Of a DNA stretch of 64,000 bases, positions 7,728-57,376 are shown piece by piece. The DNA lies in the NCBI GenBank assembly GCA_963798915.1, contig CAWCVB010000005.1, positions 324,012 to 388,011 on the forward strand, read 5' to 3'. Below the pieces are notes generated by a model that was not told the origin of the DNA, did not search any database, and was given only the letters and a program-made list of their open reading frames with translations. The first letter of the stretch is position 1; each line of letters begins with the position of its first letter. This DNA is from an uncultured Gemmatimonadales bacterium. GTDB lineage: Bacteria > Gemmatimonadota > Gemmatimonadetes > Gemmatimonadales > GWC2-71-9. The translations under genes and the position numbers were made by a program.

Positions 7728-7767
7728 TGTGGGCTGAAAGCTCCAGTCGAAAAGCACTAGTTTCGCT

Positions 7768-7873
7768 CAGCCTTCAGCCTTCAGCCTCAGCCTTCAGCCT
7801 TCAGCCTTCAGCCTTCAGCCTTCAGCCTTCAGCCTTCAGCCTTCAGCCTTCAGCCTTCAGCCTTCAGCCTTCA
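7768..7873. repeat. (CAGCCTT)x15 heptamer tandem array (one 6-nt unit at 7782-7787) filling the tRNA-Arg to tRNA-Pro spacer
   Basis: Units were counted directly. The array abuts the tRNA-Arg 3' end at 7874. Read on the transcribed minus strand the unit is TGAAGGC / AAGGCTG. Confidence 0.95.
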
Positions 7874-7947
7874 TGCGCCCGGAGGGACTCGAACCCCCAA
7901 CCTTCTGATCCGTAGTCAGACGCTCTATCCAATTGAGCTACGGGCGC
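7874..7947 (-). tRNA. tRNA-Arg (anticodon ACG)
   Basis: The reverse complement is GCGCCCGTAGCTCAATTGGATAGAGCGTCTGACTACGGATCAGAAGGTTGGGGGTTCGAGTCCCTCCGGGCGCA. The anticodon loop is CTACGGA. Confidence 0.95.
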
Positions 7948-7972
7948 TCGGCGGCGCAGAACACGCCAGCCA

Positions 7973-8046
7973 TGGGCGGTACAAGGCTCGAACTTGTGAC
8001 CTCCACGATGTCAACGTGGCGCTCTAACCAACTGAGCTAACCGCCC
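7973..8046 (-). tRNA. tRNA-Val (anticodon GAC)
   Basis: The reverse complement is GGGCGGTTAGCTCAGTTGGTTAGAGCGCCACGTTGACATCGTGGAGGTCACAAGTTCGAGCCTTGTACCGCCCA. The anticodon loop is TTGACAT. Confidence 0.95.
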
Positions 8047-8051
8047 GAGGA

Positions 8052-8171
8052 GACGGACAGACGGCTAGACGGACGGACGGCTAGATGGAGAGTGGTCTGG
8101 TGACGGATGCCATTCCCTCACCGGAGGCCACCAACCGTCTAGCCGTCCAGCCGCCTAACCGTCTTCCTGCC
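8052..8171. repeat. Two inverted arrays of five octamer units around an imperfect central stem; this is the whole tRNA-Val to tRNA-fMet spacer
   Basis: Left arm 8052-8091: GACGGACA GACGGCTA GACGGACG GACGGCTA GATGGAGA. Right arm 8132-8171: CAACCGTC TAGCCGTC CAGCCGCC TAACCGTC TTCCTGCC. The arms pair in one continuous register (p+q=16223). By hand count that is 28 of 40 Watson-Crick pairs. Confidence 0.85.
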
Positions 8172-8172
8172 A

Positions 8173-54178: not shown

Positions 54179-54309
54179 TCCAAAGCTCCAGCCGGGGCCT
54201 CGCTGAGTCGCTGATGGCAAAGATAACGTGCCTTTGGTCGCCGAGTGGTCGCTTGACGCCCCGGGTTGCCCCTCGTAACGTTTGCCTTTCCCTTGAGAGC
54301 AGGCGCCCC

Positions 54310-54867
54310 GTGGCAGCATTTGACGGACTCAAAGCCCGTCTGGAACGACTCTTTGCGGAATCGGCGGGCGATCCCGCCGCCGGCCTGCGGGAGGCGCTGG
54401 TCGAAATGCGCGTGGGCCTTGGCGTCATGCGCGATGCGCTGCACCGGACTGAGCAGGAGCTGGCCGCCGAGCGGCGTCAGCTCGGTGATGCGGAGCGGCG
54501 ACAGTCGCTGGCCGCCGACATCAACGATGCGGAAACGGTTCGAGTCGCGGAGCGCTTCGTCATTCGCCATCGGGAACGCTCGGCGGTGCTTGAGCGCAAG
54601 CTCTCGGTGCAGCGCGACGAGCTTGCGCTGGCCGAGCGCGAGGTCGAGGAACTCACGGCTCAGTATCGCTCGTCTTCCCTCGGGGCCGGGGAGGCGGCGG
54701 CGTCGATCAAGCGCGCCTGGCGCGATCTGGCGGCGGCCGGCGGTACCCGGCCCGAGATGGATCTGGACGCTGAACTGGAGAAGGCCGAGGCAGATCGGAA
54801 GCTGCATGAAGCTGCCGTAGAAGCACAGCTGGCACAGCTCAAACGCAAGCTCGGACGACAACCCTGA
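54310..54867 (+). CDS. Coiled-coil protein (possibly PspA/IM30-like); start uncertain
   Basis: The frame is open from 54160. A GTG at 54310 gives VAAFDGLKARLERLF.. and the rest is heptad-rich and Ala/Glu/Arg-rich. An alternative ATG lies at 54214. Confidence 0.45.
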   Translation: MAAFDGLKARLERLFAESAGDPAAGLREALVEMRVGLGVMRDALHRTEQELAAERRQLGDAERRQSLAADINDAETVRVAERFVIRHRERSAVLERKLSVQRDELALAEREVEELTAQYRSSSLGAGEAAASIKRAWRDLAAAGGTRPEMDLDAELEKAEADRKLHEAAVEAQLAQLKRKLGRQP

Positions 54868-54893
54868 TCCTTCTCACGACAGGAGCCCGCTCC

Positions 54894-56429
54894 TTGCCCT
54901 CCCATGCCCAAGCGGCCGAGACCGCGCTGGATCCAGCCGCCGACCGCGGCTTCTTTGGCCATCCCCGCGGCCTGGCAACGCTCTTCTTCACCGAAATGTG
55001 GGAGCGGTTCAGCTATTACGGGATGCGAGCCATCCTGATGCTGTTCATGACGGCCGCGGTCGTCAACGGTGGTCTCGGATTCGATGCCGCGACCGCGGGG
55101 CCGATCTACGGCCTGTACACCTCGATGGTGTACGTCGTGGCACTGCCAGGCGGGTGGTTTGCCGACCGGGTAATCGGCCAGCGGCACGCCGTGCTGATCG
55201 GTGGCATCGTCATCATGCTTGGCCATATCTCGCTGGCCATGGAAGGGCTTCCATTCTTCCTCCTGGGCCTCTTCCTGGTGATCTGTGGCACTGGACTGCT
55301 CAAGCCGAACATTTCGACCATGGTGGGCCAGCTCTACTCGGCAGATGATGCCCGCCGTGATTCCGGCTTTTCGCTCTTCTACATGGGCATCAACCTGGGC
55401 GGCTTCCTCGCGCCGCTTGCGTGCGGCTTCCTGGCCCAACATCCCCGCTTTCATATGCTGCTGGAATCGTGGGGCATGAACCCCAACCGGTCCTGGCACT
55501 GGGGCTTCGGAGCGGCCGCGGTCGGGATGTTCTTCGGGATCCTGCAGTATGTGCTGGGTGCGCGGCACCTGCGCAGCGCGGGTCTCGCGCCCGGGGACCC
55601 GCTTGCGCGCAACCGACGCAATCTCGCCAAGATCGTGCTGGCCGCGCTGATCCTGGGGGGCGCCGCCATCCTGCTGCTGTCGGGCAGCAGCGCCATCGCT
55701 GCGATGCCCACCGTCAACAAGACCATGGCCGTGGTGCTGCTGGTTACCCCGATCGCGTTCTTCACCTGGTTGCTGACCGTCGGCAGCCGGAACCGCGACG
55801 AGCGGAAGCGACATCTTGTCATCTTCGTGCTCTTCCTGGGAGCATCCGTCTTCTGGTCGGCCTTCGAGCAGGCGGGCTCGACGCTCACACTGTTCGCCAA
55901 GGAAAGCACGAGGCATGCATTCCTTGGCATCACCTTTCCCGCGTCGTGGTTCCAGTCGGTCAACTCCCTCTGGATCATTCTGCTGGCACCGGTATTCGCA
56001 TGGCTCTGGCTCCGGCTCGGCAGGCGCGAACCATCCACACCCACCAAGTTCGCCCTTGGGTTGTTCTTTCTGGCGGCCGGATTTGCCATCCTCATCCCGG
56101 CGGCGCGGTTCTCGGCCGGCGGAGGGTCGGTAAGTCCCGGCTGGCTGATCACCACCTACCTGCTGCATACCATCGGCGAGCTGTGCCTGAGCCCGGTCGG
56201 CCTGTCGGCCATGACCAAGCTTGCGCCGATACGCTATGCGGGCCTGATGCTGGGCGTATGGTTCCTGGCGGCGTCGGTCGGGAATTTCATTGGCGGCAAC
56301 GTGGCCGGCCTGTACGATGCCTTCACCACGGACCAGATTTTCACGGCCGTGACGGTCTTTGTCCTCGGCGCATGTGCCCTGATGCTGGTATTCGTCCGGC
56401 CCATCAAGCGGATGCTGGCGAGGGAATGA
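54894..56429 (+). CDS. POT/PTR2-family proton-dependent oligopeptide transporter
   Basis: 511 aa with FGHPRGLATLFFTEMWERFSYYGMRAILMLFM. Confidence 0.93.
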   Translation: MPSHAQAAETALDPAADRGFFGHPRGLATLFFTEMWERFSYYGMRAILMLFMTAAVVNGGLGFDAATAGPIYGLYTSMVYVVALPGGWFADRVIGQRHAVLIGGIVIMLGHISLAMEGLPFFLLGLFLVICGTGLLKPNISTMVGQLYSADDARRDSGFSLFYMGINLGGFLAPLACGFLAQHPRFHMLLESWGMNPNRSWHWGFGAAAVGMFFGILQYVLGARHLRSAGLAPGDPLARNRRNLAKIVLAALILGGAAILLLSGSSAIAAMPTVNKTMAVVLLVTPIAFFTWLLTVGSRNRDERKRHLVIFVLFLGASVFWSAFEQAGSTLTLFAKESTRHAFLGITFPASWFQSVNSLWIILLAPVFAWLWLRLGRREPSTPTKFALGLFFLAAGFAILIPAARFSAGGGSVSPGWLITTYLLHTIGELCLSPVGLSAMTKLAPIRYAGLMLGVWFLAASVGNFIGGNVAGLYDAFTTDQIFTAVTVFVLGACALMLVFVRPIKRMLARE

Positions 56430-56439
56430 GGACGCTGGC

Positions 56440-57282
56440 GTGAGGCGGCTTCGGATCGCCGCCTGCATGGCCCTCGGAAGTGTCGCGTTGACGGCGTGCG
56501 ACCGGCCGCCGGCCAGCCCGGCCTCCACCAGCCTGCCGGGTGTCGTCGCGCTGCGGGTGCCGCCTGACTCGGAGATTCCGGACGGGCCGATGGGGATTGC
56601 CATCCGGCGCGGCCGTGCCTTGCTGGATCACACGCGTGACAGCATGCCAGCATTTGTAGGCAACAGGCTGAACTGCACCAGCTGTCATCCCGCCAATGGC
56701 ACTCAGGCCAACGCCATTCCCTGGGTGGGCGTGTATGCCCGCTTTCCGCAATACCGTGCGCGCAGTGCTGCCGTCCTCACCATCGAAGAGAGAATTGCCG
56801 GCTGCTTCCGAAGATCCATGAACGGCACGGCGCCGCCAGCCGGGAACCGGGATGTCGCCGACATCGTCGCTTACTTTGCGTGGTTATCGCGGGGCGTGCC
56901 GCAAGGAGCCAAGGTGGAAGGACAGGGCCTGCCGCGGTTCGAACTGCTGCATGGCGATACGGCGGCCGGCCGCGCGCTCTACGCCGCCGAATGCGCCCGA
57001 TGTCATAACGCCGATGGCTCGGGCAACGTGGGGCCGGCATTATGGGGAGACGGCAGTTACAACATTGGCGCCGGCATGGCGCGCATCCGCACCGCTGGCT
57101 CGTTCATCCGCCACAACATGCCGTTTGACAAGCCGGGGACGCTGTCAGACGCCCAAGCGGCCAATCTCGCCGCCTACATCAATGCCCAGCCCCGTCCCGA
57201 CCTGCCCGGAAAGGAAAACGACTGGCCCAACGGCGATGCACCACCGGATGCGGCCTATCCGACGCTGGCGTCCCCGCGGTAG
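56440..57282 (+). CDS. Diheme c-type cytochrome lipoprotein (COG3258 / TsdA-like)
   Basis: 280 aa with lipobox LTAC and two CxxCH motifs (CTSCH and CARCH). ARFPQYRARSAAVLTIEERIAGCFRRSMNG resembles the thiosulfate dehydrogenase family. Confidence 0.7.
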   Translation: MRRLRIAACMALGSVALTACDRPPASPASTSLPGVVALRVPPDSEIPDGPMGIAIRRGRALLDHTRDSMPAFVGNRLNCTSCHPANGTQANAIPWVGVYARFPQYRARSAAVLTIEERIAGCFRRSMNGTAPPAGNRDVADIVAYFAWLSRGVPQGAKVEGQGLPRFELLHGDTAAGRALYAAECARCHNADGSGNVGPALWGDGSYNIGAGMARIRTAGSFIRHNMPFDKPGTLSDAQAANLAAYINAQPRPDLPGKENDWPNGDAPPDAAYPTLASPR

Positions 57283-57304
57283 GGCAGAGAGATGAGAGCT
57301 AAAA

Positions 57305-57376
57305 GCTGAAGGCAGTAGCTTCGCTCAGCCTTCAGCCTTCAGCCTTCAGCCTTCAGCCTTCAGCCTTCAGCCTTCA
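57305..57376. repeat. Second (CAGCCTT)n locus: anti-repeat GCTGAAGGC, TTCGCT linker and seven units plus CA
   Basis: GCTGAAGGC (57305-57313) is the exact complement of GCCTTCAGC in the array. The units run 57326-57374. The flank AGCTTCGCTCAG matches AGTTTCGCTCAG at 7759-7770. The final TCA is the TGA stop of the TonB receptor gene. Confidence 0.9.

Follow-up and report, generated by a model that had tools for sequence, protein, structure and literature searches.

Spacers between genes in a stretch of chromosome from an uncultured Gemmatimonadales bacterium (GenBank assembly GCA_963798915.1, contig CAWCVB010000005.1, positions 324,012 to 388,011; 64,000 nt, hereafter the window) repeatedly consist of tandem arrays of 7- or 8-nt units that begin at or shortly after a stop codon or the 3' end of a transfer RNA (tRNA) gene. 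These arrays keep to non-coding DNA, are unevenly spread over the types of spacer, can in many cases pair with an inverted copy to form a hairpin, and hold their positions in related genomes while their sequences turn over and paired arms co-vary. We consider it rather probable that they are long simple-sequence repeats (LSSR) that were born by slippage in transcribed non-coding spacers and were partly co-opted as arms of RNA hairpins. An earlier reading of the window (the original prediction) had described them as a 3'-flank feature of genes, perhaps lineage-specific, that might build hairpins, terminators or processing sites or be a product of slippage.

Tandem arrays of 7- and 8-nt units occupy spacers in the window

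Using Tandem Repeats Finder (TRF) and direct reading of the sequence, we located the arrays listed below, which bear out the original prediction at nearly all of its coordinates; locus 8 is degenerate, and loci 10 and 11 are marginal.

Locus 1, 7767..7873, minus strand: TCAGCCT x15.4 by TRF, matching at 98% and including one unit of 6 nt; the transcript reads (AAGGCUG)x15; occupies the tRNA-Arg to tRNA-Pro spacer, 0-2 nt past the tRNA-Arg 3' end.
Locus 1, distal part, 7728..7766, minus strand: loop and decayed inverted copy (GGCTGAAAGCT...) that pairs with the locus 1 array; its CTGAGCGAAR junction is also found in locus 9.
Locus 2, 8047..8171, minus strand: 125-nt hairpin with octamer-periodic arms, AGACGGNN and NNCCGTCT, occupying the tRNA-Met to tRNA-Val spacer; octamers at 8051-8089 and 8131-8153 by TRF.
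Locus 3, 8359..8384, minus strand: palindromic period-7 array, GCTNAGC x3.6 (8359-8383 by TRF), a 9-bp hairpin directly 3' of tRNA-Gly.
Locus 4, 8522..8549, minus strand: 14-nt tandem duplication, TCCCACGCTGCCGC x2, 13 nt past tRNA-Ala; unstructured.
Locus 5, 16179..16227, plus strand: GTCAACG GTCTACG GTCAACA (GTCGACC)x3 GATGACC in the atpG|atpD intercistronic spacer; begins 6 nt past the atpG stop codon and ends 17 nt ahead of the atpD ATG, just 5' of the Shine-Dalgarno sequence AGAGGA.
Locus 6, 20989..21037, plus strand: (GACGACY)x7 (20991-21035, period 7/14, by TRF) between two convergent genes, a small open reading frame (ORF; 20666-20941, plus strand), judged real, and a DsbA-like gene (21035-21694, minus strand) whose stop codon is in the last unit.
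Locus 7, 24494..24610: palindromic module between convergent LemA and M23-peptidase genes, starting 3 nt past the LemA stop codon; octamer arms (AGGCGGGA x3 and CTTCCCGT x3; 24510-24533 and 24587-24612, period 8, by TRF) lengthen a central GC-rich terminator-type hairpin.
Locus 8, 40483..40561, minus strand: degenerate GUYGACN heptamers, then CCUCUAC GACCUAC, occupying the spacer between the E2 and E3 genes of pyruvate dehydrogenase (PDH), with the E2 stop codon in the first unit; 40497-40561 is too degenerate for detection by TRF, with a legible GTYGACN register.
Locus 9, 57283..57376, minus strand: (AAGGCUG)x7 from the UGA stop codon of a TonB-dependent receptor gene (57325-57376, x7.4, 100% matches by TRF), followed by a loop, a decayed inverted array (~5 units, 72%) and UUUU; terminator-like.
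Locus 10, 41873..41910, minus strand: weak trace of CCACGAC / UCAUGAC heptamers in the E1-beta|E2 spacer; marginal.
Locus 11, 44855..44888, minus strand: period-7 signal (GTCCGAA-like), also marginal, within a small hairpin of the porin|lipA spacer.

By gene and tRNA calls, all nine main loci lie 0-13 nt from a stop codon or a tRNA 3' end (0 nt at tRNA-Arg, tRNA-Met and tRNA-Gly, 13 nt at tRNA-Ala); the stop codons at 21035, 24611, 40559 and 57374 do lie inside a terminal unit, as had been claimed. Loci 1-5 and 8 are entire co-directional spacers (inter-tRNA, atpG|atpD and E2|E3), and loci 6, 7 and 9 lie between convergent genes. The arrays are not simply 3' features, because two of them, in intercistronic spacers of housekeeping operons, adjoin the next gene's ribosome-binding site on its 5' side and end 15-17 nt ahead of its start codon; the assignment to gene and tRNA 3' ends stands, with the amendment that several arrays fill whole spacers. 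Runs of identical adjacent units within degenerate arrays, and higher-order periods of 14 and 21 nt, point to a local homogenisation of units that is typical of slippage.

In a lag-p self-match scan of the window, 3,996 bp of confident spacer were set against 55,252 bp of coding DNA, with 100 dinucleotide shuffles as the control. Five period-7 arrays (237 bp) were found in the spacers and none in the coding DNA or the shuffles, which for the window bears out the view of the arrays as non-coding. Period 8 gave one array at the strict threshold and two at a looser one. No spacer hit occurred at periods 5, 6, 9 to 12, 15 or 17 to 19, and the few at periods 13, 14, 16, 20 and 21 were mostly multiples or artefacts of the period-7/8 arrays. 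Across the window and five relatives, counting spacers of at least 15 nt, arrays were present in 26 of 115 spacers, and 145 kb of coding DNA held a single array, a weak one; the occupied spacers were 2/17 divergent, 7/13 convergent and 17/85 co-directional, the orthologous spacers of relatives being non-independent samples. No array of the window lies within an ORF or a divergent promoter spacer.

Relatives hold arrays in the same spacers with different units

Nine distinct syntenic loci of relatives were compared, comprising the surroundings of atpG (L121, L122/L125, L126, L127 and L128) and of the pdh genes (L201-L203). The same spacers hold arrays in these relatives, but the unit, the copy number and even the presence of an array vary. 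Because independent assemblies hold arrays in the same spacers, the arrays are not an assembly artefact, and because orthologous spacers differ to this extent, they are dispensable, born in place within minimal spacers and turned over much faster than coding DNA of ~75-80% identity. This quick turnover of units and copy numbers fits the idea of slippage put forward in the original prediction.

The tRNA-Met to tRNA-Val spacer is a long periodic-arm hairpin in 7/7 genomes (z -4.9 to -9.6, from predicted folding energies against shuffles), built from five different repeat units, whereas the 6/6 genomes tested show no structure in the Ala to Gly spacer next to it (z +1.1 to -1.6). Between tRNA-Arg and tRNA-Pro, (AAGGCTG)15 in the window corresponds to (AAGGTCG)3(AGGGWCG)4 in L121 and to an octamer array in L127, and just 10-11 nt are present in L122, L125 and L126. 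The tails of this module read ...CTTTCAGCC in the window and ...CCTTGACCCTGGACCC..CTCGACCC in L121, and both fold (z -3.0 and -5.2): between these two genomes the unit has changed concertedly, the partner arm has co-varied and pairing has been retained. A plain terminator follows tRNA-Pro in the window, and in L121 and L122 the 5' arm of the terminator is a heptamer array of six or three units, (GGACACG)x6 with an inverted partial copy and UUUU in L121 (z -7.3) and x3 in L122 (z -6.2).

In the atpG|atpD spacer, GTCNACG/GTCGACC x7 in the window is matched by GTCGACG x2 + GACGACY x7 in L121 and by an unrelated 100-nt insert + GACGACY x3 in L122; all three arrays stop ~17-18 nt ahead of the atpD ATG, and L126-L128 carry other hairpins at this site. 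Other loci of L121 and L122 likewise have units of the GACGACY family, to which locus 6 belongs. The pdh E2|E3 spacer holds arrays in the window, L201 and L203 and none in L202, and the E1-beta|E2 spacer, clearly an array in L201 and L203 (GGCCTAG x3 + GACTTAC x4), measures 3 nt in L202. Between the LemA and M23 genes, the window and L121 hold palindromic modules of 117-120 nt that differ in sequence, the 21-nt spacer of L126 is a proto-array of an octamer (CGCCCCTG, x2.2), and in L122 the stop codons overlap (CTAG), leaving no spacer. Elsewhere in L126, a relative with 77% AtpG identity, (CTTCAGC/CCTTAGC)x9 occupies the rpoD-like|mlaE spacer (2814-2876) in the rare CAGCCUU sense (z +2.0); its counterpart in the window is an array-free spacer of 55 nt (9790-9844).

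Selection appears to act on structure and not on sequence, units being replaced concertedly with the partner arm following. The rival to be weighed here is that the arrays are neutral microsatellite debris: slippage, with occasional fold-back template switching to yield inverted copies, would fill unconstrained DNA, hairpins would be by-products, and the sole selection would be against breaking genes or promoters. Relatives with spacers of 0-11 nt at the same sites, the free turnover of units and copy numbers and the many arrays without structure all agree with such an origin, and the depletion at divergent spacers could be mere promoter constraint. What it does not lead one to expect is a Met to Val hairpin kept in every genome despite complete replacement of its sequence, beside an Ala to Gly neighbour that is never structured, or the joint change of unit and partner arm in the Arg to Pro module; we regard it as possible but on the whole doubtful.

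Two of the relatives, L122 and L125, are 99.6-100% identical over 11.5 kb, yet the Met to Val hairpin has been wholly replaced between them (75 nt, L122:511-585, versus 124 nt, L125:2900-3023), and the tRNA-Arg to tRNA-Met block of the L125 allele is ~92% identical to the window, against ~79% for coding DNA between these lineages. This suggests that the hairpin is a cassette exchanged between lineages, likely through homologous exchange via the near-identical flanking tRNA genes or through mobility of the module itself. Such a swap would also be expected if the hairpin modules were small non-autonomous mobile elements, resembling miniature transposable elements with inverted repeats (MITEs) or REPINs, that insert at stop codons and whose arrays are secondary expansions of their ends. 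Consistent with this are the LemA|M23 module missing from L122, the bounds CTAG...CTAG in L121 and CTAG...CTAA in the window (maybe a 4-bp target duplication), the outer ends AGACGG...CCGTCT in three modules, and a GTTCGC(T) loop junction common to loci 1 and 9, L047, L105 and L121. A 25-nt element (TGTCACCCTGAGCGAAGCGAAGGGG) that the atpG|atpD spacers of L122 (8455-8480) and L128 (10905-10930) carry in opposite orientations could be read in the same way; in these two relatives, with ~74-87% AtpG identity to the window, it resembles a small dispersed element distinct from the arrays. Elsewhere, as at 8047-8171 and in the direct arrays, neither a terminal inverted repeat nor a target duplication recurs consistently, units vary by locus without a conserved family consensus, and no RAYT or other transposase was found among the ~50 ORFs and genes scanned with Pfam, a scan limited to the window. 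The junction CTGAGCGAAR, considered as a dispersed REP-like core, was rejected, with 7 matches in the window against 9.5 expected, and recombination between the flanking tRNA genes explains the swap equally well. We judge a mobile origin decidedly unlikely.

Many arrays are predicted to fold into hairpins with an inverted copy

Predicted folding energies were compared with those of shuffled sequences, and many arrays were found to pair with an inverted copy. Locus 2, in which an inverted repeat was also detected, folds at -81.6 kcal/mol (z -8.9), locus 7 at -74.8 kcal/mol (z -7.0) on the plus strand and -66.8 kcal/mol (z -4.9) on the minus strand, and locus 9 at -44.6 kcal/mol (z -3.4) on the minus strand; the two halves of the atpG|atpD array pair with each other (-27.1 kcal/mol, z -3.3), and locus 1 with its distal partial inverted copy gives z -3.0. 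Because most arrays in this lineage adjoin an inverted copy, often shorter or decayed, the transcript would fold into a long hairpin. In the atp and pdh spacers, the hairpin part gives way to an unstructured, ACGAC-rich stretch that halts at the Shine-Dalgarno sequence. By eye, two loci look terminator-like, locus 7 in its core (AAAAGGGGCAGC...GCTGCCCCTT) and locus 9 (stem + UUUU); U-tracts follow the tRNA-Pro hairpins of L121 and L122, and intra-operon arrays have none.

The reading we prefer, slippage followed by partial co-option, would run as follows. Units of 7 nt, and of 8 nt in hairpin arms, would originate and turn over by strand slippage in very short transcribed spacers after genes and tRNAs, and would persist only where reading frame is irrelevant; co-directional and convergent spacers often hold them, divergent (promoter) spacers seldom. 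Some may then have been put to use to lengthen the stems of hairpins of the intrinsic-terminator type (the LemA|M23 module, the 3' end of the TonB-receptor gene and, in relatives, the tRNA-Pro terminator). The long tRNA-Met to tRNA-Val hairpin could plausibly serve as a processing or RNase III-type site, and in atpG|atpD and PDH E2|E3 intercistronic hairpins may be combined with the unstructured ACGAC-rich tract that ends at the next gene's Shine-Dalgarno sequence.

Several results weigh against this combination. Structure is weak or missing in the 14-nt duplication of locus 4 (z +1.1), on the plus strand of locus 6 (z +1.4; weak structure, z -1.9, on the minus strand), at locus 8 (weak fold, z -0.65) and locus 11 (z -1.5), and in (CAGCCUU)9 of L126 (z +2.0), (GACGACU)n of L121 (z +0.9) and (CAGCGUG)9 of L127 (z -0.6). 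Because several arrays are without structure, a hairpin role cannot account for the whole family; several single-orientation arrays fold less well than shuffles, so the proposal of hairpins and terminators holds for the loci with hairpins or terminator-like stems and not for these. A U-tract follows only some of the hairpins, and the terminator and promoter scans are uninformative because their totals match the shuffled expectation and the arrays were left unflagged, as in the simple terminator consensus scan. Pure in-situ slippage predicts neither the recurrence of one unit at several loci of one genome (GACGACY, AAGGCTG, AGACGGNN) nor the phylogenetic incongruence of the Met to Val cassette. 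The unit-number polymorphism that the original prediction proposed to look for did not appear among four contigs of 99.5-99.8% identity (L122-L125), whose arrays have only 3 units. Finally, the spacer counts include the non-independent orthologues mentioned above, and termination, processing, stabilisation and provision of an unstructured ribosome-binding site are all roles that we infer.

AAGGCTG arrays recur across phyla with a strand bias

Tandem CAGCCTT of at least four units was found in at least 120 stretches of species-representative genomes from many phyla, including, among the matches listed, Verrucomicrobiota, Planctomycetota, Acidobacteriota, Gemmatimonadota, Desulfuromonadales, Chloroflexota, Cyanobacteria, Actinomycetota, Gammaproteobacteria and others. 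Because these arrays span many phyla, they are not the lineage-specific invention that had been envisaged. Among the matches listed, many sit at contig ends, and the loci are rich in other heptamers, period 7 making up 385 of 1,068 TRF rows, about one third of them AAGGCTG. The locus 9 leader matches a locus (L047) of a Gemmatimonadales metagenome-assembled genome (MAG) with 91% identity over 78 nt. In IMG/VR, we found 29 stretches of AAGGCTG (~16 unrelated groups), 32 of TAACTGA, 4 of GACGACC and 1-3 of each of four same-composition permutations of AAGGCTG, which is ~8-15 times commoner than its permutations and about equal to TAACTGA. In the literature, we found no mention of tandem AAGGCTG or of such repeats in Gemmatimonadota.

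ORF-based assignment among the matches listed placed 22 arrays in AAGGCTG sense and 4 in CAGCCTT sense in co-directional spacers, 11 in convergent spacers and 0 in divergent ones (37 classifiable). Read in AAGGCUG sense, about one third of the arrays among these matches start no more than 40 nt from a stop codon or themselves provide it, and AAGGCTG arrays often end 3-31 nt ahead of a start codon or start at a stop codon; UGA occurs in all three frames of the array. An inverted partner within 130 nt, usually 3' in AAGGCUG sense, accompanies 19 of 150 AAGGCTG arrays among the matches listed, against 5 and 1 for the controls. The bias of 22 to 4 in other phyla is unexpected from replication-only processes and is a further point against neutral debris.

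A preferred, strand-biased unit invites the explanation that the arrays are multimeric platforms for an RNA- or DNA-acting protein, for example a translational regulator, with the 7-nt period as its footprint. The excess of AAGGCTG over its permutations, its parity with TAACTGA, its placement near starts and stops and the array ends fixed ~17-18 nt ahead of the atpD start in three lineages would all suit a bound protein. Units are nevertheless very diverse within one genome, no core 4-mer common to them is prominent, their replacement at orthologous sites is something that a sequence-specific binder would resist, and no candidate protein was identified; we strongly doubt this explanation. It is also conceivable, though unlikely, that AAGGCUG arrays are a cross-phylum element acting at the RNA level with a preferred unit and that, separately, periodic-arm hairpins are cassettes exchanged between species at conserved tRNA spacers. 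A conserved trans-acting factor might underlie the AAGGCUG pattern, or else a general design rule of intercistronic and 3'-untranslated regions, candidates for which could be a frame-independent stop pad, a ribosome stand-by site or avoidance of Rho loading.

Three unifying features were considered, of which the first and the third are rejected as general rules. A common CTGA core (as in TAACTGA, MTYCTGA and AGGCTGA) fails because four-mer enrichment in non-ascertained units is at most ~2-3 fold and inconsistent between sets. Avoidance of C-rich arrays in operons as Rho loaders, a speculation only, fits AAGGCTG and not Gemmatimonadales, where C-rich sense arrays occur (L126 and L127). A stop codon in all frames is true of AAGGCUG and false of GUCGACC, AAGGUCG, CAGCGUG and others.

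In four loci of other phyla (L033, L072, L080 and L101, from Verrucomicrobia, Planctomycetales and a MAG labelled Bifidobacteriaceae), (CAGCCTT)4 lies within or just ahead of the 5' coding region of a gene with a signal peptide or prepilin-like start (e.g. ...FTLTELIVAV...). The array encodes a QPSAFSL repeat in all three frames, and a change of one unit shifts the frame, so these genes are possibly phase-variable. As a general account, in which copy-number change toggles neighbouring genes, phase variation is extremely unlikely for the window: its arrays lie neither in ORFs nor between promoter elements, they follow housekeeping genes (atp, pdh, tRNAs), and divergent spacers are depleted. Separately, ~13 related 'viral' contigs of IMG/VR (L130-L157, about 60% G+C) are extremely heptamer-rich, and the 29 IMG/VR loci contain 185 period-7 TRF rows in which units containing TCGA or CGAC are over-represented.

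Gene content of the window

The window is a bacterial chromosome segment with 66% G+C. Homologues of AtpG and PDH-E2 with 65-92% identity are named Gemmatimonadales or Gemmatimonadota, and the syntenic loci concur with this placement. The genes of the window comprise a kdp remnant, a gene for an rpoD-like sigma factor, mla genes, an atp operon's F1 part, dnaE, a pdh operon, the TonB-dependent receptor gene and, on the minus strand, a six-tRNA operon (Ala-Gly-Met-Val-Arg-Pro). Rfam searches of the window, at gathering and E-value thresholds, returned the six tRNAs and nothing else. The tRNA order is common to 6/7 Gemmatimonadales genomes, tRNA-Arg(tcg) replacing tRNA-Pro in L127, and in the window none of the six tRNA genes (7653-8635) encodes a 3' CCA; their trailers start with T in 6/6 cases and with TG in 4.

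The kdpD gene (528-4110 region) is broken over three frames, with an N-domain ORF (1403-1951), a DUF4118 ORF (2246-2968) and a GAF-HisKA-HATPase ORF (2386-4110), and kdpC (528-1094) gives a partial profile match only; either the operon has decayed or the assembly contains indel errors in this GC-rich (70%) stretch. In-frame repeats are also present in coding DNA, with periods divisible by three, unlike those of the spacer arrays: atpA has a 21-nt duplication (14055-14095) that is kept in all relatives (e.g. L121 8762-8802), and GGTGGCGGAGGC-type units of 12/24 nt (23089-23185) encode the Gly-rich tail of a TPM-domain protein.

Discussion

Heptamer arrays in spacers have been described before; the original prediction knew of no description of them as a general 3'-flank feature in this kind of genome. 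Their occurrence in Gemmatimonadota, the periodic-arm hairpins and the array-expanded terminator arms are additions to the features described for Xanthomonas and Nostoc. The GGGAATC heptamers of Xanthomonas and GGGGAYT heptamers of Nostoc/Anabaena are ~90% intergenic, lie mostly between aligned or convergent ORFs and are depleted at divergent ORFs (Rehm et al., 2015; PMC4692102). They lie within 50 bp of a stop codon or overlap it, form many inverted pairs able to make stem-loops, are transcribed, and are conserved in position between related species while length and sequence vary extensively (PMC4692102). The arrays of the window share the co-directional and convergent bias, the proximity to stop codons and the inverted pairs (loci 1, 2, 5, 7 and 9), but they differ in their Gemmatimonadota host, in having many unrelated units per genome in place of one dominant G-rich unit, and in octamer-periodic hairpin arms and array-expanded terminator arms, which are absent from the description of the Xanthomonas and Nostoc repeats.

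For those G-rich repeats, non-B DNA or G-quadruplexes have been proposed, and the shared feature set, together with the GGG tracts of AGGCGGGA x3 at 24510-24533, would allow the same proposal here. Most units of the window (AAGGCTG, GTCGACC, GACGACY, GCTNAGC) lack any stretch of at least three G, so that four G3 tracts are unavailable and most units cannot form G-quadruplexes; this account has very little probability.

The window arrays also fall within the prokaryotic LSSR, which have units of 5-11 nt, are longer than expected by chance, are most commonly heptamers, are excluded from coding DNA when the unit is not a multiple of three, and are proposed to arise by polymerase slippage (Mrazek, 2007, as relayed in PMC4679880). 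All of the heptanucleotide features of that class are present, namely a tandem 5-11-nt unit, occurrence above chance and exclusion from coding DNA; the class itself is purely descriptive and silent on hairpin pairing, association with terminators and strand bias. Heptamer families are also found in Geobacter metallireducens and Chloroflexus aurantiacus. The closest parallel to AAGGCTG is TAACTGA, a single unit spread over distant phyla (marine Beggiatoaceae, cyanobacteria and Bacteroidetes) that is intergenic, sense-oriented and near start codons, and for which binding of a translational regulator has been proposed in Beggiatoaceae (MacGregor, 2015; PMC4679880). AAGGCTG has comparable frequency in IMG/VR and comparable strand bias, but the window arrays start at stop codons or tRNA ends and mostly pair into hairpins, unlike TAACTGA, which overlaps ribosome-binding regions and has no reported hairpins.

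Cyanobacterial STRR (short tandemly repeated repetitive sequences) are likewise tandem 7-nt units that stand in spacers between genes and inside operons and are able to form hairpins. One example is the hupS-hupL spacer, for which transcript stabilisation or translational coupling has been proposed (PMC2670836), and an STRR is also reported inside an RNase P RNA helix (Vioque, 1997). None of STRR1 (CCCCAGT), STRR2 (TTGGTCA) and STRR3 (CAACAGT) is an array unit in the window, whose host is not a cyanobacterium; the CAACAGT previously cited as a link, at 16195-16201 and not 16193-16199, is a single chance occurrence that spans two units, a coincidence.

REP, BIME and REPIN sequences, extragenic palindromes of enterobacteria and pseudomonads, are found in 3' and intercistronic spacers, where they fold into stable hairpins that may stabilise upstream mRNA or punctuate operons; REPs form a conserved sequence family mobilised by RAYT transposases. 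By contrast, hairpins of the window differ by locus, have internally periodic arms and show no enrichment of the junction motif. As judged from these sequence features, membership among STRR or REP elements fails on their defining features, and membership among MITE elements is doubtful.

The arrays extend intergenic heptamer repeats, a poorly understood class, to Gemmatimonadota, a common and little-studied soil phylum. They break short-read assemblies and can mislead gene callers at stop codons. The comparative series, in which the position of the inter-tRNA hairpin is kept in seven genomes and other tRNA, atp and pdh (four genomes) spacers hold arrays in some only, is material for deciding between junk and selection on RNA structure. 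Most worth pursuing are AAGGCTG, which looks like a preferred unit with a strand bias, and the hairpin cassette that is swapped between near-identical strains. Should the preference for AAGGCTG and its strand bias prove to be genome-wide, a general constraint, so far unrecognised, on intercistronic and 3' RNA of bacteria would be indicated.

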